DNA of 64,000 bases, from the NCBI GenBank assembly GCA_030390025.1, contig CM059431.1:140928001-140992000 (forward strand). The letters are read 5' to 3'. The translations under genes and the position numbers were made by a program. Origin of the DNA: Squalus acanthias (lineage: Eukaryota). The notes under the pieces were generated by a model. The model was not told where the DNA came from. It worked only from the letters and a program-made list of their open reading frames with translations, and did no database searches. The first letter of the stretch is position 1. Each line of letters opens with the position of its first letter. Positions 984 through 51,372 of the stretch are shown piece after piece.

Positions 984-1198
984 TGTCATAAATCGCAAGT
1001 AACAACTCAGGAAGTACTTCTGGGCGGCCAGCTGGGGCGCCGTCCAGGGAGTATAAATACTCAGGCATGGGCCCACCTTGGGCAGAGACAATCTGGAAAC
1101 AGGAAGCTAGTGACTGCTAACTGGACCTCCATGTTTTGTTACAAGTTGATTAAAGCCTTGCTTTATGTTCAAGTGCGTAGTGAGTCTTTATTACGTCA
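984..1198 (+). repeat. Gypsy 5' LTR
   Basis: TGTCATAAATC...TTACGTCA. TATAAA at 1052-1057 and ATTAAA at 1149-1154. Repeated at 5280-5494. Confidence 0.95.
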
Positions 1199-1298
1199 AT
1201 TTAATCAACTTGATATCGTCTCCACGCTTTGGGTGATTCGGAACAACCAGCTGCAACTCGAACCACAGAAGGGAACTAGGGCAAGAAACTGATCCATC

Positions 1299-2699
1299 AT
1301 GGAAAAACTCCTTAGACCCGCTCGTCTCGACCTGGACCCGAATGCACCTGCGGCAGCAAAGGTATGGAAGCATTGGTTTCGTACCTTTAGCAACTTTCTT
1401 GAAGAATGTGGGGCGGATGTCCCTAATAAGTTACGAATGCTTATCAACTACGTGTCTCCTCATGTGTATGATTATATTGAGGACTGTATAGTCTATGACA
1501 CTGCTATCGAAATCTTACAGCAGCTATATGTCAAGTCCCCAAATGAAATATTTGCTCGACACCTACTGGCCACAACTCGGCAGCAGCCTGGGGAATCACT
1601 CGATGAATTTCTCCAGAAACATCGCAGGCTCAGCAAGGATTGTAACCTTAAAGCAGTTACAGCTGAACAGTATCAAGAGGAACTAATCCGCGATTCCTTT
1701 ATCAATGGGATCGCGTCCCCTTTTATACGTCAGCGCCTGCTGGAAAATAAAACCCTCAATTTACGGGCTGCTTATGACCAGGCGTGTTCCTTGGACTTGG
1801 CCAAGAAAAATGCAGACACTTATCTCCCACCACGTGCACGGGCGGCGGCTATCTCCTTTAATGAGTCTTTCGGTAGGTCTCGGGCGGATGCCCCCACTGA
1901 TGTTGACTCTACTCTAACGGACGACGACCCTACCCTAGAGGCCTTCGCTGATGACGACCCCGCCCTAGCAGCATCCTGGCAATCAGGAAGAAAGTGTTTC
2001 TTTTGTGGAGGGGCGTGCCATCACAGAAAATTTTGCCCGGCTCGTAATGTGACCTGCAATCATTGCAGCAAGAAAGGACACTTTTCCAAGGTATGCCAGT
2101 CACGGGCCTTTGCTAACAAGAAAGGCCGCTCCTCTAAAGTATACCGGTCGAGAGCTCCTGTTAGCTTCACAGCTGCTATCTATGGAGCTGCTCCTCCCTC
2201 AAGAACTACTGTTAAGGCTACAGTTGCCGAAGGGAAAATTGCCCCTCCTCCCATCACGGCTGTTTTTCCCCAAAGTTTGTTCCATGCAGCCACGAAGGTT
2301 TCAGTAAATGGGCACACTCTAAGCGCGCTAATCGACTCCTGCAGCTCTGACAGCTTCATTAGTAAGCGGGCTGTCAACAGGTTAAAACTGCACATTTATC
2401 CCTCGGACAGGGAGATTGCAATGGCTCTGACGACTCTGACCACCAATTCTTCTGGCTTCTGTCTTGTCAACCTCATCCTCAACGGCCGCATGTATCTCTC
2501 CACCCAGCTCGGAGTACTCGCAAACTTATGCAGCGATGTGCTTCTGGATAGGACTTCCAGAAGCAGCACAAGAAGATCACTTTTGAGTTTGGAGGGTCAA
2601 GGCCAGAGCTTACCATTTCTAAGGTGCCTTTTTGTGCACTCTCGGCGGCCTTACTCGGTGAACCCTCCCTGTTTGCCAATCTTCCCCCCCCCGCTGTAA
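1299..2699 (+). pseudogene. gag: Gypsy gag + aspartic protease (frameshifted near 2550 and at the C9 run 2684-2692)
   Basis: Zinc knuckles CFFCGGACHHRKFC and CNHCSKKGHFSKVC. Protease motif ALIDSCS. The natural continuation DFQKQH...FANL..CKPIATKSRR lies in two shifted frames. Confidence 0.8.
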
Positions 2700-5241
2700 A
2701 CCCATAGCCACCAAATCGCGGCGCTTTAGCCAAGATGATCGAGCGGTTATTGAGGCGGAAATCTCTCGCCTTTTAGTCGACGGTATTATCGAGTCATGTT
2801 CATCTCCCTGGCAGGCTCAGGTCGTCATTGTGAGGAAGCCCTTAAAACAATTTGAAAAACGTCTGTGTATCGATTATTCGCAGACTATTAATCAATATAC
2901 CGATCTGGATGCCTACCCGCTGCCACGCATAGATGACATGGTCAACAACCTTGCCAAATACAAGGTATTCTCGACCTTCGATTTAAAAAGCGCTTACCAT
3001 CAGGTGCCACTGCAAAACTCCGACAAGAACTATACGGCCTTTGAGGCCAATGGTCGGCTTTTTCAGTTTCGCCGCCTTCCATTCGGGGTCACCAATGGGG
3101 TGGCCGTCTTCCAACGGGCCATGGATGGCCTAGTCCGGCAAGAGAACTTGACGGATACCTTTCCGTATTTAGACAATATCACTATTGCCGGCCATGATCA
3201 AAAGGAGCATGACGCCAATCTTCAGAGATTTTTTGACGTACTCCGCCGTCGCCACTTAACGTTAAACGAATCCAAATCGGTGAAGTCGGTGCCATCGGTG
3301 AACATTCTTGGCTACTGGGTGGGCAACGGCGTTATTAAACCGGACCCAGAGCGACTTTGTCCACTTCAGGAGCTCCCTCCCCCGACGAACCTCGGCTCTC
3401 TTCGTCGGGCACTTGGCATGTTTGCTTATTATGCAAAATGGATACCACACTTCTCCGATAAAATACAGCCCCTGCTCCATGCGAAGTCTTTTCCATTGGA
3501 AGCTACGGCTATTTCTGCCTTCAACCTCCTCAAACGACAGTTGGAGAAAGCCACGCTTCGCTCCATTGACGAAAATCTTCCTTTTGTGGTCGAATGCGAT
3601 GCATCGGAGGTGGCGATCTCCGTTACCTTGAATCAAGGTGGCCGACCCGTGGCATTCCTATCCAGAACCTTGCAGGGTAGCGAGCTCCATTACCCCCCCG
3701 TCGAGAAGGAGGCTACGGCCATCATCGAGGCTGTACGCCAATGGGGTCATTTTCTTGCTCGGCGTCATTTTACGCTTATAACTGACCAGCGCTCTGTGGC
3801 CTTCATGTTGGATAACCGGAGGCGCACGAAAATCAAAAATAATAAAATTCAACTCTGGAGGATGGAGCTGGCTGCCTTTGGATATACTATCTGTTGCCGA
3901 CCCGTCAAACAGAACGTGGCCCCAGATAACTTCACACGGGCATTTTGCTCCTCAATGTCAACGTCGACTCTGGCGGATTTGCATATGGACTTATGCCATC
4001 CTGGTGTGACCCGCATGTTGCACTTTGTGCGCTCCAAAAATCTACCATTTTCAACCGAGGACGTAAAGAAAACATGCTCATCCTGTAGGATTTGTGCAGA
4101 ATTGAAACCACAATTCCTTCGCCCATCAGATGGCTTACTCATACATGCAATGCAGTCTATGCAGAGGCTCAGCTTAGACTTTAAAGGGCCATTGCCTTCG
4201 TCGACAAGGAACACCTACCTACTTACGATGGTGGACGAGTATTCACGCTTTCCCTTCGCCTTCCCCTGCCCTAATATGCTTACCTCTACGGTAATTAAAT
4301 GCCTCGATCAGGTCTTTTCCCTTTGCGGGACGGCCAATTTTATCCACACTGATCGGAGTCCCTCCTTTATGTCGAGTGAACTTAAAAGTTACCTCTCCCA
4401 ACGGGGAATCGCCTCAAGTAGGACGACACCATATCACCCAATCGGTAACGGACAGGTTGAACGATACAATGCCATCATCTGGAACGCTGTCCGTCTGGCA
4501 CTAAGGTCACGCAACCTACCGGACCAGCAGTGGGAAACGGTGCTCCCCGACGTGTTACACTCTATCAGGTCTCTTCTCTCCACATCTACTAATGTCACGC
4601 CTCATGAGCGATTCTTCAAATTCCGGCGTCGCTCTACACATGGGACGTCTCTACCATCATGGTTGGTGGCTCCAGGCCCGGTGCTACTCCGGAGGTTCGT
4701 CCGGTCTGCCAAAAACGACCCTCTCGTTGACGAGGTGGAGTTAACGGAGGTAAACCCCACGTATGCGCACGTACGGTACCCTGATGGCCGGGAGACCACC
4801 GTTTCGCTCCGAGATCTGGCTCCCTGCCCAACCGGTCACACGGGCCCGAATGATGCAGGATCCCACGACGATGATATCAACACTCCGCACCCCTATGAAA
4901 ATGACGCCCCGCTTGGGACATCGGTGGATCTGCTGGCAATGCTACCGGATCAACTCAGGGAGCTGGATGCTCCCCGTAGGATGGCCACCCGAAACCAGGA
5001 CGCCGGACAATCTCCAGCCACGACTCGGGATCAGGCCAGCTCAGCACCTGTGGGGACCCGCACCCGGAGTCATGATATTCCCAGTCCTCCACAGGATGAT
5101 CAAGATGACGCGGACTCTACTGACTTACCGGTACGGGCCAAGCGACCCAGGGACCAGGATACGGTCCGGGGAGACGTGCCTTCCGGTCACAAGCAGAGAG
5201 CTAAATGTCTGCGGCTATTTCTGGTCCGCCTAGTCCATTAA
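2695..5241 (+). CDS. pol: Gypsy pol (RT, RNase H, integrase)
   Basis: LCIDYS, FDLKSAYHQ, LPFG and YLDN in RT. VECDAS, EKEA and LITD in RNase H. HHCC plus LDF, TD and VER in integrase. Confidence 0.9.
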   Translation, partial: CKPIATKSRRFSQDDRAVIEAEISRLLVDGIIESCSSPWQAQVVIVRKPLKQFEKRLCIDYSQTINQYTDLDAYPLPRIDDMVNNLAKYKVFSTFDLKSAYHQVPLQNSDKNYTAFEANGRLFQFRRLPFGVTNGVAVFQRAMDGLVRQENLTDTFPYLDNITIAGHDQKEHDANLQRFFDVLRRRHLTLNESKSVKSVPSVNILGYWVGNGVIKPDPERLCPLQELPPPTNLGSLRRALGMFAYYAKWIPHFSDKIQPLLHAKSFPLEATAISAFNLLKRQLEKATLRSIDENLPFVVECDASEVAISVTLNQGGRPVAFLSRTLQGSELHYPPVEKEATAIIEAVRQWGHFLARRHFTLITDQRSVAFMLDNRRRTKIKNNKIQLWRMELAAFGYTICCRPVKQNVAPDNFTRAFCSSMSTSTLADLHMDLCHPGVTRMLHFVRSKNLPFSTEDVKKTCSSCRICAELKPQFLRPSDGLLIHAMQSMQRLSLDFKGPLPSSTRNTYLLTMVDEYSRFPFAFPCPNMLTSTVIKCLDQVFSLCGTANFIHTDRSPSFMSSELKSYLSQRGIASSRTTPYHPIGNGQVERYNAIIWNAVRLALRSRNLPDQQWETVLPDVLHSIRSLLSTSTNVTPHERFFKFRRRSTHGTSLPSWLVAPGPVLLRRFVRSAKNDPLVDEVELTEVNPTYAHVRYPDGRETTVSLRDLAPCPTGHTGPNDAGSHDDDINTPHPYENDAPLGTSVDLLAMLPDQLRELDAPRRMATRNQDAGQSPATTRDQASSAPVGTRTRSHDIPSPPQDDQDDADSTDLPVRAKRPRDQDTVRGDVPSGHKQRAKCLRLFLVRLVH

Positions 5242-5279
5242 AGGAAGACTGGACTTCCAAACCTTTTAGGGAGGAAGAA

Positions 5280-5494
5280 TGTCATAAATCGCAAGTAACA
5301 ACTCAGGAAGTACTACTGGGAGGCCAGCTGGGGCGCCGTCCAGGGAGTATAAATACTCAGGCATGGGCCCACCTTGGGCAGAGACAATCTGGAAACAGAA
5401 AGCTCGTGACTGCTAACTAGACCTCCATGTTTTGTTACAAGTTGATTAAAGCCTTGCTTTATGTTCAAGTGCGTAGTGAGTCTTTATTACGTCA
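5280..5494 (+). repeat. Gypsy 3' LTR
   Basis: Direct repeat of 984-1198, preceded by the PPT and followed by the TSD GTACC. Confidence 0.95.
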
Positions 5495-12754: not shown

Positions 12755-15321
12755 TTGGTGTTGGGTTTTACTTCCCTAACTTGTTGGTCTGGCGGAATTC
12801 CGGGACTGGGGAAAATGACATCTGGTCACTGAGAAAGCCGAAGCATTCTGACACAGACACTGACCGGCGGCAGCATTTCCTGTTCTAAGACACTCGGACT
12901 GTGACCTCATTTCCTGTGGCCCATCGTGAAGAGCGCCACAGTCTGGAGTCGGGGGCTCCTGATGACGTAGCGAGTGCTTCAAAAGTGGACCTGGTTCGTC
13001 ACACTTCTGACACCAACAGGCAATGGGTGCAACGCTCAGCCGATTCTGTGACGTGTCACCAATTATATTCAGGAGCTCCTGCTTCTTTCACTCTTCGCAG
13101 TTTGTATATTCAGCAGTTTCATTTGACTTTTGCAGTTCAAGGATAATAAATAAATCACAAATATTTATGGCTACTGTTTTTTCGGGATCATTAAACTTGT
13201 GGACATCAACTCTGGGCATTGATTTTCTTCCCATTAATGTAACATAAGATGTATTTAATTCCGGCTGTGGTAAAGATCCCTTAACATTCTTCTAGCATTG
13301 AGTGGAACAAGAGACAGATTCCGATGTTAAGGACGGCCGTCAGCCTCTGGACGGAGCTCTGTAATTCTCCACTAAAATTCTACAACCACAAAACTCTCTG
13401 CACTGTTATACAAACACATCTATGCGATCATCGTGTTCCAACATGTCGATACGCGATGGAGAACTTCGCGTGAGTTACACCCCAACTTTTTAAGTCTTTC
13501 TTTCGACACGATTATGCAATAATGTTTTAATAACATTTAAATCTGTTACTGAATCTAAGTATTTATGAGAGACTAGGTTTCATCTACAAGAAATAAAAAC
13601 GGACACACAATCCAAATAATGGCACTGCCCAAATAATTCTGACAGTAAAGAGTCTTGAAACAATTAGAGGCTTCTTCAAAGGTGTCGTTATTTTATCAGT
13701 TACTATTCGGAAAAGAGGAAAGATGTCACTAATTCCGTGATTTGACTGAACTTTCCGCCGCTTTACTGAATTATGTCGATTGGCAGCAGCGTATTTTCGA
13801 CCCGCCCAATTTTCTTTTTCATTATAGTAAATGAAAGTGGAAATTCGGTCGGGGTGTATGACTGGCGGACAGTCCGCTCCAGCCAGATTTCCGCCCAGAC
13901 CGAAATTGAAAATGACCTTAGATACAGAATATTCAGATTCCACTAATCCCAAATGTACTGATAACTACAGGCATGCAGTAGATGGAAGGCACCGCGATAA
14001 ACATACAATCCGACTGGGCGAAAAAAAATGCATGAAAGCCAATCAGTTAAACATTAATGTAAACCAACAAAGAAATTAATATCTGCGGCGCCCATCATTC
14101 GCAGAAGATGTATAAAGATCGAGCTGACACAGCGCTGCCTGTTTATATGTGTAACCCGGGATACTGAATAGAACAGCGGAAGCAGTCAGAGACAGTCCTC
14201 TGACTTTCTTACACATCCTGCAGTGTGAAAAGTGGATTTACCCAGTTGGAGGGTCAGCTTCTCTTCGAAATCTTACAACCTGCAACACATGTACTGCAGA
14301 ACAAATTGGAAAACATTTTCAACCGAGGCACTGAAATTAGCGGGCGGATAAAATGCTAGTTAATTGGCTCGAATCCTCATCTGAAGCATTTGCACCGATA
14401 AATGCTCTCAAACCCAGGTCCCCAGTGGTGCTGGACGGAGCTCCGAATACACCGCCTTGCACTGGGGGTACCCGTTCAATGCCAGTTGGTAAAAGGGACG
14501 AGGTTATACACGACAGTGTCTGTGCACCAACACACACAGCGGATTATTCCATGTAAATATCTGAGAGTCCTGTTTACTGATCCTTGCCTGAAATGCCCTG
14601 ATTATAAATTCTTATTTCTTACACTGTGTTAGTAGGTTACAGGGTCGCTGATTCACGTTAATATCACGCAGATTCACCATGATACATTTAGTAACAGCAA
14701 GTAACAACTTTATTTAATGTTGCTGAACAGACTTCAACTATTACTCAATAATCGAGACGTCAGAATAAACAGTAAAACGAGGCAACTCCAGTAAACATTC
14801 AAAAAATGCTGAAACATCGCAACACTGTGAAGGGGACAGCGGCACCGCTCCTTATTCGCAGGAGAAGAGGTGAAGCGGCCCTTGCAACTGCAATCAGTCC
14901 AAATAACATTTTCACCAAACCTGCGAGGAAAAAGTAACTGGACCGAGAGTTGTAAACGATAAAATCTTTCCCTAAAACTGGTGACTGATCCGGTCAATAT
15001 ATGGCAGAATTGATTGCATGTCCTCGCAGGATCAGATATTAAACCCGTTGATCAACTATTGTATTCCACTATTAAATTTCACTTCATCACTGACGTTTTT
15101 CATACTTAAGGGGGATGTCCTTGTTTGGGAGGAGAAACTCGACCAAAGAACTGCGGAAACCCACAGTCCTTGTTGGCGTTAAATGCTACAAAGGGCCCCA
15201 CATATACTCGCGTACCTGTGAGGTTTTTACAAGAACAATCCTATGTAGCGGTTAGTAGAGAGAACCCCACTCTAAGCTGGAACACGAGCTAGAACGGAAT
15301 TCTAATATCCCAACCGAAGCT

Positions 15322-15977
15322 CTAGTTCAGCTTTCTTTCATGTTTAACCAATCTTAGAATCAGTGTCCAGGGAGATTTCAGCATCTTCTTCAGCTCTTCT
15401 CTGAATCTCCTCTGGGTCGCTGCATAAATACACGTGTTCGGACAGGAACTCAAATGCTTCAGCATGGCTCCGGTTTCAGTGGCGACATAGGCTGGGTTTG
15501 TGCGGTCACCTCGGTAATAATTGACATCTGTCATTCTGGTAATCAAAAAATTCACTGCAGTTGTCAGCCACAGCAATATAAAACTGCCCGATATAGCGAA
15601 GAGCAAAATGATGGATTTCCTTCGGCTCTCCATCTCTGGATCGCTCTGTTTCTCACTGCTCTGACCCCGGAGTCCCCTGCGGGCTCTGCTGGCCATTAAT
15701 ATACGTTTGACGGTCAAACAATTAAACAAGGCCATTAAGGTAAACGGAAGCCAAACGAGCCATATGATGTGAAACCAGAGATACGCTTCACCTGGAGGGG
15801 AGGAAAAAAAAGCTACACTTGACCGACAGCCCCACTGCACCTTGTTAATTATTTGCTGAGATTCATCTGCAAACAAAACGACAATGCCCTTTAAAAAGAT
15901 TAGAACCGTGAACGTTGTTATAACCGCGGCCGCAGTTCTCTCGGTGCAATACTTTACTTTAAACTTCTGGCAGCAGA
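15322..15977 (-). pseudogene. GPR139/GPR142-like class A GPCR, exon 2 3' part (TM4-TM7), cut off by the ERV
   Basis: CCQKFKVKYCTERTAAAVI...DPEMESRRKSIILLFAISGSF...SSCPNTCIYAATQRRFREEL. The frame is open up to the TAG. Confidence 0.9.
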
Positions 15978-16493
15978 TGATGTAAGCTCCCAAAGTGCGG
16001 ACCCAGTGATATACAAGGTCGACGCTACTGGCTTGTTGGAAGAAAGACTGACCAAGTAATTGAAGTCACAACGGTTTATTACAGGCCTGGGGAGAACCTC
16101 TCATGTCGCTTACATGAGTACATCTCCACCGAGCTAATGAAAACACACATATTTATATCCAATCAGGTTTAAAAGTTACACACAATGCTAGGTCTAAAAA
16201 CACATTACTCGTTTTACAAATATTTCTGTCTTGCCTTTACAGAGATCCAATTAGGTTTAAAAGTTACTTGGTTAGCAAACATTTCTGTCTCGCCTTATGG
16301 GGATCTCGTTATCCGAGGGTGGCTGTAAAAGTTACATACAATGCTATCTGTAAATCTCGTTGAAGGAGGTAGACTCCGAAAGCTTGTAAGGTGTTGTGTG
16401 ACTTGAAACAAATCTCGTTAAAGGCCTGGCTTTCTGCAAATGAGTCATGCCCGAATTGCCCTGGTTATATCCAATTTTTAATATCTTACTTCA
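15978..16493 (-). repeat. ERV 3' LTR
   Basis: No difference from 23172-23687 seen by eye. On the - strand: ATTGG + TATAAA (16152-16157) and AATAAA (16075-16080). Confidence 0.95.
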
Positions 16494-16506
16494 ATTCCCC
16501 CCTTTT
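16494..16506 (-). other. ERV polypurine tract
   Basis: AAAAGGGGGGAAT immediately before the 3' LTR. Confidence 0.9.
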
Positions 16507-17300
16507 GACCTATTGGACAACTGTTCCAATACAGGTCAACATGTATTCCTATTGCCTGGTGTCTGCCTGAGCGTGCACTCTCTGGCCTTCTACCAGTCTA
16601 GGTTATACATGGGTATGACATAAACCAATTTATAAGCCGGTTTCACCCCACGCGGTATATGTGGACTTATTATTTTCTTGTCTTGGTTCTATGTTGCCAT
16701 CCCCGGGGCCCAAGAGCCCTGCATCAATGGTTTGGGCTTCTGGTTCGAGCTCGTCCTCCATTCCCTCGGTGGGTGCGTGACGTGTCCTTTCGAGACTGTC
16801 ATCACTCACCAATCCTGTTTCTGCCACTCCCGTCTTACGGTTGGCCGGCCTGGTTATTAATTACCATGTCCAATTCATCCCTTGTAATTTTAGGGCTATA
16901 GATCGGGTCTTACACCATCATGGCTTTACCTAATCTTTGAGCAGCAAGAATACACAGTATATTGTAATAACAATCACGAGGAATATCATTATGCTTTGCA
17001 CCACTGAGGCGCCCAACGTCCCCGACCAGATACTTGATTATCTTCCTTTTTGTCAGCCGTCCCTTCTTCCGTCGTTCTTCTAATTTGTCCTGTGGAAATA
17101 CAAGGCTGGTCGTCACCAGCAGTTAGTTATTCCATTCTTACTACTTTGCCAGTCTCCCAGATCTATTGAAACATACAGACCACGAAGAATGTTACTATCA
17201 TAATGCAACAGGATCATATTAACGCGAATACAAGGATGTCCTGTCCCTTTGGACCCTATGCAAATAATCCTTGCTTTCCTTGTACAATATGATTTCTGGG

Positions 17301-20300
17301 TTATTCATCAGCTTCTTTGTATAATTTTAATTGTGTCCAGTGTTTCCATCTTCCCTTTCCAGTGCCGTGCAGGTCTATGCATGCACAAGTGTCGCTGGTC
17401 ATTAATACCAAATAGGGTCCTTCCCACCGGGGCCGTAACCCAGGTTTTATTGGAATTATTCTAGACATTACCTGACTTCCCACCCCAGGTATGACTTTCT
17501 TTTGTTCCTCGGTATCCCTCTCCAGATCCTTGATTATCTGCTGGTCTCTAGCCTCCTGTCTCAGCCCGTGCAGTTCCGCACATAATTGCTTTATGAACCT
17601 TCTGATTCTGTCCTTTAAAGGTCCCACATCTTCCCCTCCGGTCACTACTCCTTCGGGAAGCGCCATTGCCCGTCCCGTCATTAATTCAAAAGGGGTCAGT
17701 CCGGTGGTGCTATTTGGTGTGGCCCTTAGTCTCATTAGGATTGTGGGTAACAGTTCCGCCCATCCCTGCCCCGTCTCCACAATGGCCTTTGTGAGAGATC
17801 GTTTTAAGGTCCGATTCATTCGTTCCACCATTCCTGAACTTTCGGGATGGTAAGGTATATGAAATTTCTGCTTTACGCCCAACAGGGCGCAAGCCTCTTT
17901 CATTACCTTTCCGGTAAAGTGTGTTCCATTATCTGAATCTATTTGTAATGGGACTCCCCACCGGGGTATTATTTCTTCTGCCAAGATCCGGGCCACTGTA
18001 CTGGCGGTACAGTTTCGGGTGGCAAAAGCTTCCACCCACCTTGTGAATTGGTCAATTATTACCAGACAGTAGGTTTTTCCTTTGCTTTTGGTTAATGGTC
18101 CTGTAAAGTCTATTTGTAGTTTCTCCCAGGGTCCCTTGGGTCTTGGCTGTCTACCCCATTTTACCTTTACTGGTTTTCCGGTGTTACATTGCGCACAAAT
18201 GTGGCAATCCTTACAATACTTCCTTATACTGCTTGATAGTCCGGGCCACCACCAGCATTGGCCTATGTTATTTATCATTCGGCTGGCCCCTGTATGGGCT
18301 TGTCCGTGATACAACCTCATTAGTTCCTGTTGGATACACTCCGGTGCACAGACCCGTCCCTCCTTCCTCCAGAACTTATCTCTGGATAGCATTACTCCCT
18401 TCTTTTCCCAAATGTTCAGCTCAGGTTCTGGTATGCCTTGATGTAACTTAACAATATTATACTCAAGTGGTATTAATGGGACTGGGGCTCCCCCTATCGG
18501 TGTTACATTGCCACAGGGCGCCTCCGTCATAACCTTGGCGGCCAGGTCTGCCGCTCTGTTACCTTGTTCTTGTGGAGTTTTTCCTTTGGTGTGCGCTTTA
18601 ACCTTTATTACTGCTAACTCCGTTGGTCCGCGCGCGGCATTCACCAAGGACTTTACTACGTCCAGGTGTTGGATGGGGGCTCCCCCAGAGGTGATGTACC
18701 CCCTCCTACTCCATGCGGCCATATAATCATGTACTATTCCGAAGGCGTAGCGGCTGTCGGTATATACATTAACCCTTTTTCCCATAGCCAGTTTCAGGGC
18801 TTCCGTTAAGGCTGTTAGTTCTGCGACCTGGGCAGATTTATCCCCTGGGAGAGTTCCGGCTTGTAACACCATCCCTTCCCCATTTACCACCGCCCAGCCT
18901 ATCCTCGGCTTTCCCTGTACATATTTTCGGGATCCATCTACATATAACTCCAAGTCCGCTTCGGCCAAGGGTATTTCTTTTATTTTGTCTAGGTCATTTT
19001 CTGGCTCTTCCTCATTCATGCATTGGTGGTCCTCTCCTTCCATGATCATCATGGAGGCTGGGTTCTGCCCCATATCCCTGACTATCTGTATTGACTTGTC
19101 TTTGGGTAATAGTACCGCCTCCCAGGCTGCTCGTCGAGCATTTGAGACAGACTTCAGTCGTCCCGTATTAAGTAATTCTACCAGGGTGTGCTGGGTGTGT
19201 AGTACAATATCTCCGGTCATTATAATCGGTTCACTGACCTGTACTGACCATCTGGCACAGTCTATAGCGGCCACGCAGCGGGGCATACCTGCCACGATGG
19301 GGGATCGTCTAGTGGAATAGTAGGCCACCGATCTCATGTTTCCTCCGTGCTCCTGGGCTACTACGGCGCTATAGTGTCCATCATGATTGTGACAGAATAT
19401 GTGATAGGGTCTCTCTTGATCAGGTAATCCTAACGCGGGGGCGGCGGTCAGGGCTTGTTTAAGTTTGGTAAATGCTTCTTCCTGAGTGGATGTCCACCCG
19501 ATGGGTTCTCCTGCTGCCCTACCCCCCTTTGTTAATTCATACAGAGGCGCGGCCATGTGTGAGAAGCCTTCTATAAAGTTCCGGCTAAAGTTAAAGAGAC
19601 CGAGTACCTGTCGTACTCCTCTCACGTTTATGGGCCTTGGCATTTGGCTGATTGCCTCCTTCCTTTCCTCTGGCATAGCCCTTTTCCCCATACTGACCCT
19701 ATACCCGAGGTATGTGACTTCCAATTTTCCTACCTGGGCTTTGGCTGGGTTTGCTTTAAAACCCGCCTCCCGTAGGGTTGAAAAGACCTTTACCAGGGCC
19801 CCCTTATGTCCCACTTTCGTTTCTGACGCTATTAGGAGGTCATCCACGTATTGTAAGAGGGTACTATTTTCACCCTCTAAGTCTAGGTCTTCAAGAGCTC
19901 TGGCCATGTGGCGGTGAAAAATGGCTGGACTGTTATGTAATCCTTGTGGGACCCGTGTCCATGTATACTGTTTGCCGCCTATTGTAAAGGCGAACTTTTC
20001 CTGTGATTCCTCATGCAGGGGAATGGACCAGAACCCGTTTGCGATGTCTAACACGGTGAATATTTTGTGTTCTGGTTTTAAACCGTTAAAGATAGTAGCT
20101 GGGCTTGCTACAATTGGATATTCCTTTGGGGTCACTTTATTTAAGGCTGTGTAATCGATTGTAAGTCGATATGACGCATCAGGTTTCTTTACGGGCCATA
20201 CTGGAGAGTTAGTGCCGGACACTGTTTCTCGCAGAATTCCCTGTTTCACGAGTTCCAATACTATACTCCGTACGGCTGTCTGGGCCTCCACTTTTAGGGG

Positions 20301-20864
20301 ATATTGTTTATGGGGTCGGTGGGTTGGCCCGGGGACTCTGACTGGGTTCATCTTAACCAGTCCGCAGTCCTGCTTGTGTTTGGCCCATAGTTCGGGGAAT
20401 CGGTGGCAAATTGCCCCCCACCCTCCCTTTTCGTCCCATTTGGGGTCTATTATTTGGATAGCGCTGATGGCACATGCTGTCTTGGATCCCTTTGAGTTAT
20501 GTCTCCCTTCCTTGTGGTTATCGGGCCATAGCAACTTATCCTGTTTGGGGTCTATTAAAACTCCCACTTCCCTTAGTATGTCTATACCCAGGATGGTTCC
20601 CTCAGTATTCTCACAGATCCAGAAACATGTAGGTATAATGAATTTTCCCAATTCTAGTAATACTGTCTCACTTTTCCATGCTTTAATTTTTACTCCCCCT
20701 ATCCCAGATATAAAAATATTTTCCTTGGTTCGCGGCAAGGGTACGTTTGTTAGAGATATTGCTGCCCCGGTGTCTATGAGCATTCTGCACTGTCGGCCCC
20801 CTACCAGTGCCTCAATAAACATTCTAGGGTCTCCCTTTACCGGGTCTCCGAGGGCCGCTACCTT
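17301..20864 (-). CDS. pol: ERV pol (PR-RT-tether-RNase H-IN), uninterrupted
   Basis: LIDTGA. SPVWPVKK, LDIANGF, PQG and YVDD. Degenerate RH tether, then YVDGS, AEL, YTDS and GNRAAD. HHCC, then IDF, DSD and VER. In frame with gag after a single TGA. Confidence 0.95.
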   Translation of the reverse strand, partial: KVAALGDPVKGDPRMFIEALVGGRQCRMLIDTGAAISLTNVPLPRTKENIFISGIGGVKIKAWKSETVLLELGKFIIPTCFWICENTEGTILGIDILREVGVLIDPKQDKLLWPDNHKEGRHNSKGSKTACAISAIQIIDPKWDEKGGWGAICHRFPELWAKHKQDCGLVKMNPVRVPGPTHRPHKQYPLKVEAQTAVRSIVLELVKQGILRETVSGTNSPVWPVKKPDASYRLTIDYTALNKVTPKEYPIVASPATIFNGLKPEHKIFTVLDIANGFWSIPLHEESQEKFAFTIGGKQYTWTRVPQGLHNSPAIFHRHMARALEDLDLEGENSTLLQYVDDLLIASETKVGHKGALVKVFSTLREAGFKANPAKAQVGKLEVTYLGYRVSMGKRAMPEERKEAISQMPRPINVRGVRQVLGLFNFSRNFIEGFSHMAAPLYELTKGGRAAGEPIGWTSTQEEAFTKLKQALTAAPALGLPDQERPYHIFCHNHDGHYSAVVAQEHGGNMRSVAYYSTRRSPIVAGMPRCVAAIDCARWSVQVSEPIIMTGDIVLHTQHTLVELLNTGRLKSVSNARRAAWEAVLLPKDKSIQIVRDMGQNPASMMIMEGEDHQCMNEEEPENDLDKIKEIPLAEADLELYVDGSRKYVQGKPRIGWAVVNGEGMVLQAGTLPGDKSAQVAELTALTEALKLAMGKRVNVYTDSRYAFGIVHDYMAAWSRRGYITSGGAPIQHLDVVKSLVNAARGPTELAVIKVKAHTKGKTPQEQGNRAADLAAKVMTEAPCGNVTPIGGAPVPLIPLEYNIVKLHQGIPEPELNIWEKKGVMLSRDKFWRKEGRVCAPECIQQELMRLYHGQAHTGASRMINNIGQCWWWPGLSSSIRKYCKDCHICAQCNTGKPVKVKWGRQPRPKGPWEKLQIDFTGPLTKSKGKTYCLVIIDQFTRWVEAFATRNCTASTVARILAEEIIPRWGVPLQIDSDNGTHFTGKVMKEACALLGVKQKFHIPYHPESSGMVERMNRTLKRSLTKAIVETGQGWAELLPTILMRLRATPNSTTGLTPFELMTGRAMALPEGVVTGGEDVGPLKDRIRRFIKQLCAELHGLRQEARDQQIIKDLERDTEEQKKVIPGVGSQVMSRIIPIKPGLRPRWEGPYLVLMTSDTCACIDLHGTGKGRWKHWTQLKLYKEADE

Positions 20865-22411
20865 TCAGGCGTTGCCTTTTTTTATCTGTTTGACCAGTTT
20901 TTCCATTTTCCTTGTCAGCTCCACTATGTCTTCCTCGTCGGAGGTGTCTGAGGAATCATCTCTCTTATACTTCCTACTCTTTCTCCTCTTCCTTTCTTCT
21001 CTTTCTCTGTCATCCTCCCAGTCTTGCATTCCCTTCCTGATCAGTTTCGCCATGCTTTCCTCGTTATTCTCTGACCTTCCAATACTTGACCCCGGTTTTC
21101 CTCCCTGTCTAGGTCCCTGACCTTCCCTTCCTCCTCCTTTATTCCAACATTGTTGTTTCCTATGCCCTGGTTTTCCACAATTATGACAGGAAGCCTTTTG
21201 CTGAGATGTCTGATTATCCCCTTTGTTCTGTTGCCTCGGGCAATCCCTTTTCATGTGGCCCTCCTGTCCGCAACCGAAGCATGCCGCCACACTTAATGCA
21301 TCCTCATTGTCGCTATCCGTCCTTAGGGCAGCTATTTTAGGTTTGGCTTGTTCTTGGACCTGATTATCTACTTCGCACGCCCACTGTATTAAGTCCTCCC
21401 AATTATGGTGGACCACTAGCCCCATTTTTATTGCATTCTGGTGCATTGGACTTAGTCCCTGTTTAAATGTTTGCAGAAAACAAGCGTTGTTTTTGTTTAA
21501 GGGGCCTGGGATCCCACAGTTACCCTCAAAGGCGGACCACTTTCGTTTTCCATAATCGATAGCGCTTTCTCCCTTTTTTTGTGTGATTCCGCTTATAGCT
21601 GCCCAATTTACGGGGGCCTGTCCCATTGCTGCTTCCACAGCGGCCTTGAATTGGTCGAACTCAGTGTTTAATTGTTGGATTGTCTGTCCTGTATTTGTGC
21701 CCCACTGGCCATTTCCGTGGTTGCCCTGCACTAATCTCCACTGTTCCTCGGGACATTTAGCTCGTACCAATTGATCGATATCTATACTATGTAGGGCATG
21801 GTTTATGCGTACTTCGCGCAGTTTGTGCCAGAATGTCTGATTATTCTGGCGGTGTTTTAAGGCTGGTAATTCATTGAGGAGAATCACCCGATCCTGCAGG
21901 CTTAACGGTGTGTAGGTCAACGTTGTGGTGGCCGGCCTGCCCGGTACTGCCGGGACGGCCGGATTCCCCCCTGCCGCCGGAATTTCCGGAACCGCGGGGA
22001 TTGCTGGCCTATATTGCAGTGTCACTGGTGCCATCGGAACAGGCTCCGGGGCTGCCGACTGGTGTCCTGTATATGGGGGAGGACAGCCAGTCGGCCCCCC
22101 CTGGGCAGCTCCGGGTATAACCTTTCCTGGGAGTTACCCGGTTTTGGGTTGGCTGCAGCTGCTGGATATGTTTTAAGGGCTCCGCGCTGGAGCATACGTT
22201 CCCGATCGTATCGTGCCGCTACGATAATGCACGCTTTCTCCAATTTATTTTTGGTTTGTTTCCTCCACCAGTCCCTTTGTGTGTCTGGTTTATCGTCCTG
22301 GTTCCACCCTGCCTTTCTCATTTTCTCAATTAATTTTTTATTCTTGTCGTAAACATATCGTGTTACAGACTCTGGGTCTCCCCAGGGTTCCTTATCCTCT
22401 TTGCTAGCCAT
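20865..22411 (-). CDS. gag: ERV gag (about 515 aa), split by a 1-nt frameshift in a G7 run at 22095-22101
   Basis: ORFs 22022-22411 and 20865-22034 join as LYPELPRGGPTGCPPPY...MAPV if one G is added. MHR-like ITQKKGESAIDY. Two CCHC knuckles. Confidence 0.85.
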
Positions 22412-22440
22412 AGTTTATTTATTTATTTATTTATTTATTT

Positions 22441-22965
22441 TTCGGCCAGAAGGACTTGTCCTTCACCCAGTGTTAAAACAACCTGTTTAACTACTTCTTA
22501 AGAGCCGCACCTCGTGGGCCTACCGGGTTTCTAAACCCTTGTTTGTTTATTTTAAAAACTCCCCGTTTTAACTACTACCTAAGTTTACTTTTCGGCCAGA
22601 AGGACTCGCCCTCCACCGTGTTAAAACTCCCCGTTTTAACTACTACTTAAGTTTACTTTTCGGCCAGAAGGACTCGTCCTCCACCGTGTTAAAACTCCCC
22701 GTTTTAACTCCTACTTAAGTTTATTTTTCGGCCAGAAGGACTCGTCCTCCACCGTGTTAAAACTCCCCGTTTTAACTCCTACTTAAGTTTACTTTTCGGC
22801 CAGAAGGACTCGTCCTCCACCGTGTTAAAACTCCCCGTTTTAACTACTACCTAAGTTTACTTTTCGGCCAGAAGGACTCGTCCTCCACCGTGTTAAAACT
22901 CCCCGTTTTAACTACTACTTAAGAGCCGCACCTCGTGGGCCTATCAGTTTTCTAAACCCTTGTTT
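22441..22965 (-). repeat. 68-bp tandem repeat array in the ERV 5' leader
   Basis: CGGCCAGAAGG recurs at 22593, 22661, 22729, 22797 and 22865 (68-bp period), plus a diverged copy at 22443. Confidence 0.95.
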
Positions 22966-23101
22966 TCCGGTACCGCAGTCCGGCAGTGTTAACCGCCTTC
23001 AATTAAAGGTGTCTTTCTTTTTATAGTTCTTTTGTACGTCAATCTTACTTAACGTCTCGCCAGCGATTAACCTCTAATTTTACAGGTGGTAATTTAAACG
23101 T

Positions 23102-23110
23102 ACTCACCCG
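23102..23110 (-). promoter_or_regulatory. ERV major splice donor
   Basis: CGG|GTGAGT about 45 nt downstream of the PBS. Confidence 0.7.
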
Positions 23111-23151
23111 TCTTAGGTTATCGCTGTCCGAGAGTTTTGTTCAGATCGCGC

Positions 23152-23169
23152 ATCCCATCCTCGTCGCCA
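23152..23169 (-). other. Primer-binding site, tRNA-Ser(GCT)
   Basis: TGGCGACGAGGATGGGAT, 2 nt after the 5' LTR. It is complementary to the vertebrate tRNA-Ser(GCT) 3' end AUCCCAUCCUCGUCGCCA (recalled sequence). Confidence 0.9.
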
Positions 23170-23171
23170 AT

Positions 23172-23687
23172 TGATGTAAGCTCCCAAAGTGCGGACCCAG
23201 TGATATACAAGGTCGACGCTACTGGCTTGTTGGAAGAAAGACTGACCAAGTAATTGAAGTCACAACGGTTTATTACAGGCCTGGGGAGAACCTCTCATGT
23301 CGCTTACATGAGTACATCTCCACCGAGCTAATGAAAACACACATATTTATATCCAATCAGGTTTAAAAGTTACACACAATGCTAGGTCTAAAAACACATT
23401 ACTCGTTTTACAAATATTTCTGTCTTGCCTTTACAGAGATCCAATTAGGTTTAAAAGTTACTTGGTTAGCAAACATTTCTGTCTCGCCTTATGGGGATCT
23501 CGTTATCCGAGGGTGGCTGTAAAAGTTACATACAATGCTATCTGTAAATCTCGTTGAAGGAGGTAGACTCCGAAAGCTTGTAAGGTGTTGTGTGACTTGA
23601 AACAAATCTCGTTAAAGGCCTGGCTTTCTGCAAATGAGTCATGCCCGAATTGCCCTGGTTATATCCAATTTTTAATATCTTACTTCA
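23172..23687 (-). repeat. ERV 5' LTR
   Basis: Direct repeat of 15978-16493, followed on the - strand by the PBS. Confidence 0.95.
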
Positions 23688-23956
23688 GCAGATAACTACA
23701 AATCGATCAAATGTGAAGGAGACGGTGAACCAAACAGACAAATCGAAGGTGACATGATTCATGTATAGATTGAACTTACACCCCGGAGTCTGGGACAGGA
23801 ATGAATATGGAAAATGATAACTGAAAACATAATACACCATTACATTGAAGATCATGACCAGTAGATCTGCTGTTGCCATGGTCATCATGTAGACAGAGAT
23901 ACACTTGGAAAGGCCGCAGTTTCCTCTGGAGAGAATCACAATTGTCACCAGGTTCG
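23688..23956 (-). pseudogene. GPR139/GPR142-like GPCR, exon 2 5' part (TM1 end to TM3)
   Basis: Acceptor ctctctttcctacag|CG. ANLVTIVILSRGNCGLSKCIS...ATADLL...SVWFTVSFTFDRFVVIC, then the LTR supplies an immediate TGA. Confidence 0.9.
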
Positions 23957-24365
23957 CTGTAGGAAAGAGAGAGGAGAGAAATAATGTTCCAGTATCTGAT
24001 TGAAATATATATGGAGATACCTGTGGAGAGCATTTTACTCCATTCAGTGTGATTATTAACACGGAGCAGTGTGAGAACAGGATTAGTATTGGAGCCATTA
24101 CCAGGGAAACCCACCCACACATTTAATGAGCTGCTGCAGCGCTCACTCTGCACGGGGGGACAAGACGGTCCGGAAATCCGCTAAAATCCTTGTGTTGGAA
24201 ATTCAAAAACATTGTAACATCAGTATTACGGGGAACGTGGAAAGTGCGGACACGCGGTTCACTGTGTCATGCTGACATCTGTAAAACTGTTACCTTATCC
24301 AACATGCGATATGAACAGGGACACAGTCAACACCGATTAACAACAAGCAGGTTACAATGGCTCAC

Positions 24366-24435
24366 CGGGGACACCGAAAGCTGCGAGAATCGGGTAGTAA
24401 ATCTCTTTTATCAGCAGTATATCTGGTCGCCCCAT
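24366..24435 (-). pseudogene. GPR139/GPR142-like GPCR, coding exon 1
   Basis: MGRPDILLIKEIYYPILAAFGVP followed by G|GTGAGC. The phase-1 join to exon 2 gives a 990-nt (329 aa) ORF once the ERV is removed. Confidence 0.9.
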
Positions 24436-29173: not shown

Positions 29174-30574
29174 ATGGTTCATGTGCAGTCCGTCCCAACG
29201 GAACAGCTCTCTCTTTCCCCAGTACTGGTGCGAGTGTCCCACGAATCGAAACCCACTTCTCCCACACCAATCTTTGAGCCACGCATTCATCTCTCTGATC
29301 CTGTTGGCCCTATGCCAATTTGCTCCTGGCTGAGGTAATAATCCAGAGATTATTATCTTTGTGGTCCTGTTATTTAATTTAGTCCCTAGCTGCTTAAAGT
29401 CTCTCCGCAGAACATCTTTCTTAGTCCTTCTTATGTCGTTGGTACCTACGTGGAACATGACAACTGGATCGTCCCCCTCCCACTCGAAGTGGTTCTCCAG
29501 CACGGAGGAGATGTCCTTTACCCTGGCAGCAGGTACGCAACATCGCCTTCGGGTCTCACGCTCCTGGCTGCAGAGAATAGTGTCTATCCCCCTAACTATA
29601 CTGTCGACAACAACAACCACCTTCATTTTTACTCCGCCCCACTTGAACGACTTCCTGTACCACGGTGCAGTGGCCAGTTTGCGCGTCCTCCCTGCAGTCC
29701 CCGCACTGCTCCACAAGAGTTGCAAGAACCTTGAATCTATTGGACAAGTGCAGGGACTGAGGCTCCAGCAATACTACCTCCTGGATCCCAGTACCTGCCT
29801 CACTCGCAGTCACACACTCCTGTCCCTGACCACATGTCAATTCTAAAGTATTTAGTCTAAGGGGTGTGCCTGCCTCCAGGAGCAAAAGTCCAGGTAACTT
29901 TCTCCCTCCCTGATGTCTCGCAATCTCTACAGCTCGTACTCCATCTCCTCAAATCGGAGACGAAGTTCCTCGAGCCGCAGACACTTACCACAGATGCAAT
30001 CGCCCTGGACATAAATGTCCACAAGCTCCCATATATTGCAGCAGCAACACATCTCCTGATCTGCCATTATTTAATTTATTTAATTCAATAGTTTAGAGTT
30101 AATCAAAGTAATTTCCTTGCTTAATTTAATAAATTAGTTAAATTAAGCTTCGTTTTAAAAATTTAGTTATATGCTATATGTTAAATTAAACGCTAGCCCA
30201 CATTCACAACCAATCACTTACCTGCCTTATGTTACGTCACACTGCCGTTTTCTCTTGCAGTTGCAGGTCTGCTGCTGCTTTTACCCCGCTCTCGGGCCTC
30301 GGTCTGCTCCCGCTCAGGTCCGCCGCCACTCTGCGGGAGAAGTTAGGAAAAGCAAGCAAAGCAGCACCTCGTTCCTCCACTTTACCGAACTCCCACAATT
30401 ACCGAACTCCCAATATGTTCACTTTATGTCAAGGTGCACTCCGTGACAAACTGCACACGAACCTCGCTGTTTATACTACTCAGATTTATGAGTCAGGTCT
30501 CTGGCAGTTCTTACACTTACACTACACGATACCGTGCTCCTCCACTACTAATGACAAACTACACTTACACTATA

Positions 30575-31032
30575 GTTGAAACTGCTCCTCATATACTATT
30601 TAGATTCTACATCTTCAGTAGAGATGAACGTGCTCCGACAGTATTATTTATATCCTATACCTACAGTAGAGATGACCGCGCTCCTCCTGTACTATTTACA
30701 CCCTACACCTACAGTAGAGATGACCGTGTTCCTCTGGTACTATTTATACGCTACACCTACAATAGAGATCACCGTGCTCCTCCTGTACTATTTACACCCT
30801 ACACCTACAGTAGAGTTGACCGTGCTCCTCCTGTACTATTTATATCCTACACCTACAGTAGAGATGACCGTGCTCCTCCTGTACTATTTATTTCCTACAC
30901 CTACAGTAGAGATGAACATGCTCCTCCTGTACTATTTATATCCTACACCTACAGTAGAGATGACCTTGCTCCTGCTGTACTAGTTATACCCTACACCTAC
31001 AGCAGAGATGACCGTGCTCCTCCTGTACTATA
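30575..31032. repeat. 48-bp minisatellite, left half
   Basis: Unit GATGACCGTGCTCCTCCTGTACTATTTATATCCTACACCTACAGTAGA, about 9 copies. Continues at 35982. Confidence 0.95.
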
Positions 31033-31310
31033 TATATTGATGATCTAGACGGGGGAACTAGATGTAATATTTCCAAGTTTGCAGACGACACAAAGCTGGG
31101 TGTGCGTGTGTGCTGTCAGGAGGATGCAGAGAAACTCCAGTATGATTTGCAGACGTTGGGTGATTAGGCAGATGAATGGCAGAAGCAGTATAATGTGGAT
31201 AAATGCGAGGTTATCCACTTTGGTGGCAAAAACAGGAAGGCAGATTATTATCTGAACGGCAATAGATTGGGAGAAGGGGAAGTGCAACGAGACCTGTGTG
31301 TCCTTGTGCA
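31033..31310 (+). mobile_element. 5'-truncated CR1, first part (inserted in the minisatellite)
   Basis: KFADDTKL region. Continues at 35277 (GTGCA|CCAGTCGCTGAAG). Confidence 0.8.
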
Positions 31311-35276: not shown

Positions 35277-35982
35277 CCAGTCGCTGAAGGTAAGCATGCA
35301 GGTGCAGCAGGCGGTTAAGAAGGCAAATGGTATGTTGGCCTTCATAGCGAGAGGATTCGAGTACAGGAGCAAGGATGTCTTGCTGCAGTTTTACAGGGCC
35401 TTGGTGAGACCACACCTTGAGTATTGTGTGCAGTTTTGGTCGCCTTATCTGAGGAAGGATGTTCTTGCCATGGAGGGAGTGCAGCGAAAATTCACCAGAC
35501 TGATACCTGGGATGGCTGGAATGACGTATGAAGAGAGATTGGGTCGATTAGGCTTATATTCGCTAGAATTCAGAAGAATGAGAAGGGATCTCATTGAAAC
35601 TTATAAAATTCTAACAGCACTAGACAGACAAGATGCAGGAAGTATGTTGCCGATGGTGGCGGAGTCCAGAACTAGGGGTCACAGTCTAAGGATAAGGGGT
35701 AAGCCATTTAGAACTGAGATGAGGAGGAATTTCTTCACCCAGAGAGTGGTGAACCTATGGAATTCTCTACCACAGAAGGCAGTTGAGGCCAATTCATTAA
35801 ATATATTCAAGAAAGAGTTAGATATATTTCTTAAGGCTAAAGGGATCAAGGGATATGGGTAGAAAGCAGGGACAGGGTACTGAATTTGGATGATCTGCCA
35901 TGATCTCATTAAATGTCGGAGCAGGCTCTAGGGGCCGAATGGCCTACGCCTGCTCCTATCGTCTATGTTTCTATGTTTCTAT
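35277..35982 (+). mobile_element. 5'-truncated CR1, 3' part
   Basis: MQVQQAVKKANG...LVRPHLEYC. (TTTCTATG)n tail. Confidence 0.9.
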
Positions 35983-36483
35983 GTACTATTTATAGCCTTC
36001 ACCTAAGTAGTGATGACCGTGCTCCTCTTGTACTATTTATATCCAACACCTACAGTAGAGATGACAATGCTCCTCTTGTACTATTTATATCCAACACCTA
36101 CAGTAGAGATGACAATGCTCCTCCTGTACTATTTATATCCTACACCTACAGTAGAGATGACCATGCTCCTCCTGTACTATGTATATCCTACACCTACAGT
36201 AGTGATGACCGTGCTCCTCCTGCACTATTTACACCCTACACCTACAGTAGTGATGACCGTGCTCCTCCTGTACTATTTATATCCTACACCTACAGTAGGG
36301 ATGACCGTGCTCCTCCTGTACTATTTACACCCTACACCTACAGTAGAGATGACTGTACTCCTCCTGTACTATTTGTACCCTACACCTACAGTAGTGATGA
36401 CCGTGCTCCTCTTGTACTATTTATATCCTACACCTACAGTAGAGATGACCATGCTCCTCATGTACTATTTACACCCTACACCT
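35982..36483. repeat. 48-bp minisatellite, right half
   Basis: Same unit as 30575-31032, about 10 copies. Confidence 0.95.
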
Positions 36484-37285
36484 AGGTGTCTGGAACTCAC
36501 TGCCTGAAAGGGTGGTAGAGGCAGGAAAACTAAGTACCTTAAAAATTACTTGGATGTGCTCTTAGGATGCTCTAACCTGCAGGGCTACGGAACAAGAGAT
36601 GGGAAGTGGAATTAGGCTAGATAGCTCTTTGTTGACCGGCGCGGACACTATGGGCCGAAATGGCCTCCTTCCATGCTGTAAATTTCTATGATTCTACGCT
36701 TCTATGAACTCCCACTACAAATACACTGTGGTTCAGAGGCTGGACTCTGATTTTCATGTTATAAAAAGGAAATAGAGGCACTGAAAGAGATGAAGAAGGT
36801 ATTTATAAGTTTTATACCAGAAATGAGAGATTATACCTGTCAGGAAAGATTCAACAATCCGCAGCACTTTTCTCTAGAAAAGAGAGTACTGACGGGTGAC
36901 CTGATAGAAGTCTTTAAAATTATGAATGGGTTTGATAGGTTAAACGAAGAGAAGACATTCCCACTTGTGAGGAGAATAAAACTAGTTACTATGAATATAA
37001 GATAGACACTAATAAATCCAAGAAGGAGTCCAGGAGAAACTTATTCAACAAGAGAGTGGTTAGAATGTGGAATTCTGTAATACAAGGATTAGTTGTGGCA
37101 AGTGACGTCGCTACATTGAAGGGGAAGCTAGGTAAGTACATAAGAAAATAAAGGAATAAAAGGGTGTGCTGATAGATTCAGGTGAGTGAGGTGGGAGGAG
37201 GCTTGTGTGGAACATAAACACCGACATGGACCAGTCGGCCCGTATGGTCTGTTCCAGTGCTGTACATTCTATATAAATCTATATA
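36484..37285 (+). mobile_element. Two old CR1 3' fragments
   Basis: TGGAACTCACTGCCTGAAAGGGTGG...(TTCTATG) tail, then a decayed LEKRxLxGDLIEVFKIM fragment. Confidence 0.6.
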
Positions 37286-50689: not shown

Positions 50690-51372
50690 CTGTTTAATTA
50701 GAAACAGTGAAGAGGGGAAGTTAGGGGAACACAGTAACTGTTTAATTAGACACAGAGAACAGGGGAAGTAAGGGGAATACGGTAACTGTTTAATTAGAAA
50801 TAGAGAACAGGGGAAGTAATGGGAACACGGTAACTGTTTTATTAGAAAAAGTGAACAGGGGAAGTAAGGGGAACACAGTAACTTTAATTAGAAAGAGAGA
50901 ACAGGGGAAGTAAGGGGAACACGGTAACTGTTTAATTAGAAAGAGAGAACAGGGGAAGTAAGGGGATCACAGTAACTGTTTAATTAGAAACAAAGAACAG
51001 GGGAAGTTTGGGGAACACGGTATCTGTTTAATTAGAAGCAGTGAACAGGGGAACTTGGGGAACACAGTAACTGTTTAATTAGAAAGAGCGTACAGGGCAA
51101 GTAAGGGGAACACGGTAACTGTTTAATTAGAAACAGAGAACAGGGGAGGTAAGGGGAACACGGTAACTGTTTAATTAGAAACAGAGAACAGGGGAAGCAA
51201 GGGGAACACGGTAACTGTTTAGTTAGAGATAGCAGACAGGACGATAATGGAGAACACAACAACTGTTTAAATAGAAATAGAAGACTGGGAAGTTTAGCGG
51301 TAAACAGTAAATGTTTATTTGGAAATAGAGAACAGGAGAAGAAAGAGGAACACGGCAACTTTTCAATTAGAA
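50690..51372. repeat. 48-bp purine-skewed minisatellite, about 14 copies
   Basis: Unit CTGTTTAATTAGAAACAGAGAACAGGGGAAGTAAGGGGAACACGGTAA. Confidence 0.95.

Follow-up and report, generated by a model that had tools for sequence, protein, structure and literature searches.

A shark endogenous retrovirus without a full env gene interrupts a GPR139-like receptor exon in Squalus acanthias

Introduction

Clade III endogenous retroviruses (ERVs) are reported to be the majority of ERVs in cartilaginous fish (bioRxiv 10.1101/2023.10.17.562709), and a whale shark consensus, rh_ty_ERV4 (Xu 2018, PMC6001957), is a published relative of the element described here, a 7,710-bp provirus in Squalus acanthias. 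The provirus lies on the minus strand at positions 15978-23687 of a 64-kb stretch of contig CM059431.1 (assembly GCA_030390025.1, positions 140,928,001 to 140,992,000), hereafter the window, to which all coordinates refer. In S2 Fig of PMC6001957 the rh_ty_ERV4 label closes the block of clade Huo (class III in the broad sense), beside two cyprinid ERVs, which is a matter of label order and not of branches. Like the provirus, the consensus carries a nucleocapsid knuckle followed by a GG-G-EGQGP-Q motif, and a TGA gag stop followed by GTA-xCG-GCC-CTC; its reverse transcriptase (RT) is ~64% identical over ~138 residues, counted by eye. It is not near-identical. From its gag stop onwards the consensus (PMC6001957) is ~6.9 kb long, with ~3 kb after pol, a length that would suit an env gene. 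A search of the consensus file for a Ser(GCT) primer site, over sequence runs cut at 400 letters, gave 0 matches.

Further relatives come from bony-fish hosts, unlike the provirus. Grar.ERVi.1 (9.6 kb), Grar.ERVi.4 and Rrut.ERVi.3 (10.1 kb) were chosen for an intact env (PMC10435555), and their RT rows resemble by eye the RT of the Pimephales proteins P0009/P0327, which are 54%, 56% and 61% identical to the provirus in RT, RNase H and integrase. That screen, which required an intact env, covered 13 cartilaginous-fish genomes, and no cartilaginous-fish order appears among the hosts that it lists. Two shark proteins, XP_078069418.1 of Mustelus asterias (P0268) and XP_067870587.1 of Heterodontus francisci (P0131), share one RT clade with the provirus and have an alignable Gag; both are automatic gene models, not described as ERV families. 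An earlier note on this DNA had suggested an undescribed retroviral lineage. With rh_ty_ERV4 (PMC6001957) and the cyprinid ERVi elements (PMC10435555) in print, that suggestion falls, and judging by sequence similarity the lineage is already sampled in sharks and cyprinids. The family itself is probably unnamed: no near-identical described ERV family was found in the literature searched, with subscription journals, Repbase/Dfam and parts of supplements outside the search.

Among named exogenous viruses, snakehead retrovirus (SnRV; locus L001, recognised by an RT motif together with a length of 10,688 nt) gives the best RT identity to the provirus (43%) and the best Gag match (E=5e-10). In both, Gag starts with MAS and lacks a glycine at position 2 (Gly2), and an in-frame gag stop is followed by V-A-A-L codons. 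SnRV differs in having a TAG rather than TGA gag stop, a 1-nt spacer at the primer-binding site (PBS), a 1,134-codon env frame and a hydrophobic leader upstream of the splice donor, which is absent in the provirus; its RNase H and integrase are 36% and 33% identical, lower than those of class I. The SnRV PBS corresponds to tRNA-Arg.

XtERV-S (PMC8278194) resembles the provirus in using a Ser primer, in having gag and pol in one frame with a TGA between them, and in the lack of a myristoylation signal, a 5-bp target duplication and identical long terminal repeats (LTRs). Its primer is Ser(AGA/TGA) as opposed to Ser(GCT), and both XtERV-S and ERV-L depart from the provirus in a YIDD motif, a dUTPase after the integrase and the lack of a Cys-His box (PMC8278194). 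Lokiretroviruses, too, have a dual RNase H, and locus L012 has the same 2-nt PBS spacer as the provirus. Each of these features is thus known from other elements, be it the Ser primer, the TGA readthrough, the missing Gly2, the dual RNase H or the 2-nt spacer, and we rejected the last three as novelties. IAP and MusD of mice are betaretrovirus-like and unrelated in sequence to the provirus. What we take from them, as a working model only, is the loss of env followed by intracellular amplification (PMC10924933). The account we lean towards is that the provirus belongs to a multi-copy family, young and lacking env, which spreads within cells with Gag and Pol from its own members.

Provirus structure and insertion site

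The element is a genuine endogenous retrovirus provirus of the shark. Two LTRs of 516 bp with TG...CA termini bound it on the minus strand (5' LTR, 23172..23687; 3' LTR, 15978..16493), with 0/516 mismatches between them, a TATA box at LTR position 337 and AATAAA at 414. A 5-bp target-site duplication flanks the whole, with one copy next to the 5' LTR (23688..23692) and the other next to the 3' LTR (15973..15977), showing that this copy arrived by integration. An 18-nt PBS (23152..23169, minus strand) stands 2 nt from the 5' LTR (spacer, 23170-23171) and is complementary at 18/18 positions to tRNA-Ser(GCT) (PMC9072684, PMC8632637); by known retroviral biology, this tRNA would prime reverse transcription. 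The polypurine tract (16497..16506, minus strand) ends 3 nt from the 3' LTR. Several features that mark Retroviridae were found: a tether plus second RNase H, the order protease-RT-RNase H-integrase, LTRs, PBS, polypurine tract and target duplication. The identical LTRs, the Ser(GCT) primer and the 2-nt spacing had been read correctly in the earlier note.

The provirus splits a GPR139-like host coding exon, also on the minus strand. The upstream half (23688..23957) corresponds to residues 24-113 of the Heptranchias protein P0393, with 81% identity, and the downstream half (15322..15972) to residues 114-323, with 79% identity; the halves meet at residues 113/114, and neither contains stops. GPR139-like receptors form a very large family in sharks (1,085 matches), and the named relatives among the 120 listed matches are sharks and rays, Heptranchias being the best. 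The insertion disrupts one member of this large receptor family. The 5-bp duplication and TG...CA ends show that an integrase inserted it into the exon. The young family offers a marker and a case of gene disruption in the expanded GPR139-like cluster.

At zero LTR differences, the insertion would be under ~3 Myr old at an assumed rate of 1e-9 per site per year, under ~6 Myr (5.8) at 5e-10 and under ~13 Myr at 2.2e-10, the latter two rates coming from PMC10699275 and PMC4422223. Ages of this order leave room for a family that is now immobile, in which near-identical copies go back to a short burst some millions of years in the past and owe their likeness to the low mutation rate of sharks, or were multiplied by segmental duplication or conversion; sharing of copies among organism labels (see below) could then be by descent. 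Against such an extinct burst, both halves of the interrupted exon are still open, the 5-bp duplication shows that this copy came by integration, and LTR contigs at less than twice the internal depth in three public runs hint at few solo LTRs. We regard it as quite improbable.

Coding regions

The pro-pol frame (17301..20864, minus strand) is open over 1,187 codons (3.56 kb) behind an in-frame TGA. It encodes a protease (about 20819-20553), an RT (20315-19533) with YVDD, SPVWPVKK and YTWTRVPQG, a tether (19496-19110), an RNase H (18956-18534) and an integrase (18344-17304), and the catalytic motifs of pol are present. This agrees with the intact pol, tether and second RNase H claimed before. 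A domain search of pro-pol gave no dUTPase match.

The gag gene, in contrast to pol, is broken in this copy. Its 5' piece (22022..22411, minus strand) begins at an ATG at 22411 with MASK, without Gly2 as the earlier note had stated, contains a YPEL motif, matches the N-terminus of Heterodontus P0131 (E=2e-11) and closes at 22022. The 3' piece (20865..22133, minus strand) continues in another frame with PPPY, a motif like the major homology region and two CCHC knuckles, and its closing TGA shares the frame of pol; in the ESM Atlas it leads to retroviral Gag-like clusters (0.87-0.91). Both pieces align to the Gag part of a Heterodontus protein, and the break falls in their overlap, 22022-22133. 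The split over two frames indicates that the provirus copy is defective in gag, or that the assembly is in error there. As it stands, the copy would become mobile again only with Gag from siblings. Intracellular retrotransposition, as suggested in the earlier note, is plausible for the family, but this copy in its present form is unable to make a full Gag. The gag frameshift, the gag TGA in frame with pol and the interrupted receptor exon had not been noticed earlier.

By analogy with known retroviral biology, Pol would be made by readthrough of the gag TGA, a layout described for gamma- and epsilonretroviruses and for XtERV-S (PMC8278194). The bases after the gag stop (20852-20867), GTx GCG GCC CTC, are common to SnRV (L001 2191-2206), although its stop is TAG, and nearly so to rh_ty_ERV4; they may serve in readthrough or mark where the protease cuts. 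A weak search for longer Gag fusions returned 0/2,957 candidates.

Between the pol stop and the 3' LTR there are 807 bp, in which the longest open frame is at most 76 codons, and the provirus has no full env. The earlier observation of a gap of ~800 bp without env thus stands as regards a full gene, while two hydrophobic stretches resembling an env remnant had been overlooked. The first (17181..17237, minus strand) spans 19 residues with one internal stop and would be a signal- or leader-like remnant; the second (16939..16995, minus strand), with a hydropathy of 3.03 over 19 residues, resembles a membrane-spanning segment and would be the remnant of the Env transmembrane anchor. None of 400 shuffles was as hydrophobic as the second stretch, and two hydrophobic windows in 807 bp arose in 0/500 Markov shuffles in each of four settings allowing one stop; a single stop-free window at a lower threshold arose in 6/500 and 10/500. 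No hydrophobic windows occur on the antisense strand of the post-pol stretch or in the leader. The order, a signal-like start and then a membrane anchor, suggests an env whose middle, the ectodomain, has been deleted. Since the two stretches stand in env-like order and relatives are longer, env was presumably once present, and an env-bearing ancestor would have lost the middle of the gene. An Arg/Lys-rich open frame of 70 codons (16913..17122, minus strand), with a splice-acceptor consensus near 17090 and no Pfam match, overlaps the membrane-like stretch in a different frame and may be a putative accessory exon.

Upstream of gag, the sole strong splice-donor consensus predicted in the element lies at 23102..23110 on the minus strand, with the intron start expected at 23107. 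The leader also holds a tandem array (22555..22923, minus strand) of 5.4 copies of a 68-bp unit with 97% matches, and a (TTTA)n run at 22414-22440 stands immediately ahead of the gag start.

Copies in public runs and mode of spread

Parts of the region 14500-24400 occur in 20 public runs from 8 studies under five coded organism labels, the best share being 0.75, about the element's own share; no RNA run is among those listed. We compared four of these (X1, X5, X12 and X20, under three organism labels) over 13000-22480. In 4/4 runs, contigs internal to the element show 0-4 differences per 200-2,100 bases, and element contigs are >99.5% identical under three organism labels. Flank pieces, as far as listed, diverge by 8-14%, and most of the flank positions shown either lack the window's letter or have it as a minority, so the four runs seem to lack this provirus locus. 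A small length variant occurs at the gag-break stretch in all four, which suggests that the break may be private to the provirus copy or an assembly error. With coded labels, and with sharks evolving so slowly that closely related species could share such copies anyway, spread of the family across species is a lead only.

In both X1 and X5 a contig spans the pol stop and goes on into the same sequence as in the provirus, with a depth close to that of the pol contigs (571 vs 589 and 40 vs 34, respectively). LTR contigs are ~1.6-1.8x deeper than internal contigs in X1, X5 and X20, and higher in X12; the ratio below 2x in three runs hints at few solo LTRs. In X1 the internal depth (~570-670) exceeds the 16-31 of the rarer flank joints some 20-35x (further joints in the flanks stand at 6 and ~60), a rough hint of tens of copies, though depth is not copy number.

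Taken with the env-less structure, these data are consistent with a sequence of events in which, once the env-bearing ancestor had lost the middle of env, the env-less form would have increased its copy number in the germ line while staying inside the cell, with Gag and Pol supplied by family members. IAP elements offer a precedent for env-less intracellular spread (PMC10924933), and such routes are also set out in PMC10435555.

Several observations weigh against this account. Identical LTRs give only an upper age bound, ~3-13 Myr at the assumed rates, and contig depth is not copy number. The missing Gly2 is no sign of intracellular adaptation and does not favour that route, because the Gag of infectious SnRV also lacks it. 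No stable readthrough stem was found after the gag TGA (z=-0.19). The reading of the post-pol stretch as an env remnant meets three negative results: a BLASTP search of 373 proteins with the three post-pol frames had no match at E<=1, comparison with open reading frames (ORFs) of the reference loci gave chance-level matches only, and Pfam returned one sub-threshold membrane match and no envelope. Finally, an unresolved joint at 17146/17148, at about half the X1 depth, falls between the two hydrophobic stretches; together with 600 loose ends and 3,248 pieces beyond those listed, it may leave room for env-bearing siblings.

Such siblings, or a circulating virus, are central to an alternative in which env-deleted genomes are passengers in particles supplied in trans or by reinfection, as with ETn/MusD and recKoRV/KoRV (PMC10924933). 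The broken gag of the provirus fits this alternative, as do the env-intact, recently invading cyprinid relatives (PMC10435555), the near-identical copies in runs under three organism labels and the joint in the env-remnant zone. Against it, the dominant X1 and X5 contigs continue beyond pol into the same sequence, with a depth similar to that of pol, and pol is entirely open over 3.56 kb. We consider complementation or reinfection a real contender, albeit a rather unlikely one, and intracellular spread with the family's own Gag and Pol the better account. If the family still moves without env, an IAP-type life cycle would extend to cartilaginous fish.

Phylogenetic position

Reference sequences came from an alignment scan of viral_contigs, which yielded 29 loci, mostly reference retroviruses; viral_contigs searched with a single protein gave no close relatives, and a metagenome scan gave 20 loci, the best at 39%. 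Loci of SnRV, walleye dermal sarcoma virus, feline leukaemia virus and foamy virus were named by RT motifs matching rows of the PMC10435555 alignment and lokiretrovirus (loki) rows by the CPFG motif of PMC7947760, other labels following tree position. Dereplication of 312 rows with an RT left 104, from which we built a FastTree; an IQ-TREE of 43 chosen RT rows agrees with it. The foamy rows in these trees are mammalian only, and ERV-L/ERV-S (an ERV-L motif scan gave 0 matches), class II and fish foamy-like rows are absent.

In RT, the provirus is 67% identical to Mustelus, 57% to Heterodontus, 54% to Pimephales and 43% to SnRV, compared with 40% for gammaretroviruses, 35-39% for epsilonretroviruses, 35-37% for foamy viruses and 35-36% for loki rows. 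In the RT IQ-TREE it groups with Mustelus, Heterodontus and P0011 at 100/96, and this shark clade joins the cyprinid rows and two unnamed rows at 97/93. The class I (gamma/epsilon) clade, at 100/98 and at 100/100 in a tree of concatenated RT, RNase H and integrase, leaves the provirus out, in keeping with the earlier view of a retrovirus outside gamma and epsilon types. On these sequence comparisons, the lineage is best described as one of shark and cyprinid retroviruses outside class I and foamy viruses, similar to rh_ty_ERV4. Proteins P0004, P0006 and P0012 represent a related lineage with HYVDD in RT, in clusters of 11-120 members, many of them full length.

Several memberships were considered and ruled out. 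Class I (clades Jin and Mu) fails on the position of RT outside the class I clade. For foamy viruses (clade Tu), RT lies outside the clade of mammalian foamy rows, pol is in frame with the gag TGA and Cys-His boxes are present. ERV-L and XtERV-S are excluded by YVDD in place of YIDD, the absence of a dUTPase match and the two CCHC knuckles. Gypsy is excluded by the grouping of RT inside Retroviridae in both the 104-row and the 43-row trees, so that the RT/integrase phylogeny called for earlier, here with SnRV, foamy, epsilon and loki rows and no ERV-L/S, does not place RT with Gypsy elements. Lokiretroviruses, whose RT is sister to that of all other retroviruses and whose Env is like the Mononegavirales F protein, are excluded by RT, which stands apart from the loki rows and has PQG in place of CPFG; this copy keeps no Env ectodomain. 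We give almost no credence to the element being a lokiretrovirus after all, or a member of Gypsy that carries a second RNase H: dual RNase H is shared with lokiretroviruses and integrase identity to loki rows is 39-41%, as high as to class I, whereas RT falls within Retroviridae at 100/97 and separates from both loki rows and the five Gypsy rows, and RNase H is only 24% identical to loki rows.

The earlier suggestion that the motifs lie closer to SnRV and class III than to gamma or epsilon types is borne out by RT identity among named viruses (43% vs 35-40%), by Gag and by the context of the gag stop; RNase H and integrase run against it. RNase H identity reaches 42-53% for most class I rows, compared with 36% for SnRV, and the provirus group joins class I, with SnRV left outside, in the trees of RNase H (94/91), of integrase (91/91) and of the concatenation (94/97), none of these joins being at the tool's starred level. 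SnRV falls into a different group on the RT tree and is never sister to the provirus in any freely estimated tree; a forced union of the two was not rejected by the approximately unbiased (AU) test (p=0.10). With RT, RNase H and integrase concatenated, a clade of the provirus group with SnRV plus amphibian/turtle rows was rejected (AU p=0.024), while one with SnRV alone was not (p=0.15). With ERV-L/S, class II and fish foamy-like rows absent and the SnRV and foamy branches long, the deep placement is tentative.

A wider proposal would make the shark/cyprinid lineage a stem group of class I, and not part of the SnRV clade, that kept traits resembling class III (a 5-bp duplication, a Ser primer and a Gag like that of SnRV) and includes a still-mobile env-less family disrupting shark genes and near-identical across more than one shark species. 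We put this forward tentatively and think it unlikely to hold in all its parts. A class I stem position would bear on the origin of gamma- and epsilonretroviruses and on whether clade Huo is natural; the pull of RNase H and integrase towards class I deserves further attention, as does the chance that the family is still moving in sharks.

Other features of the window

Rfam and tRNA scans of the window gave 0 matches. At 984-5494 there is an LTR element of Gypsy type by its motifs, whose 215-bp LTRs agree at 97.7% and whose ORFs span 1293-2699 and 2662-5241. The far end (62103-64000) holds a 495-codon frame resembling by eye a Penelope-type RT/GIY-YIG protein, and an inverted repeat of 547 bp at 99% (62697-63243 / 63454-64000) that could be a young element or an assembly fold-back. 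Tandem arrays with a 48-bp unit occur at 30435-31118, 35920-36555 and 50637-51408, amid many CR1-like LINE fragments.

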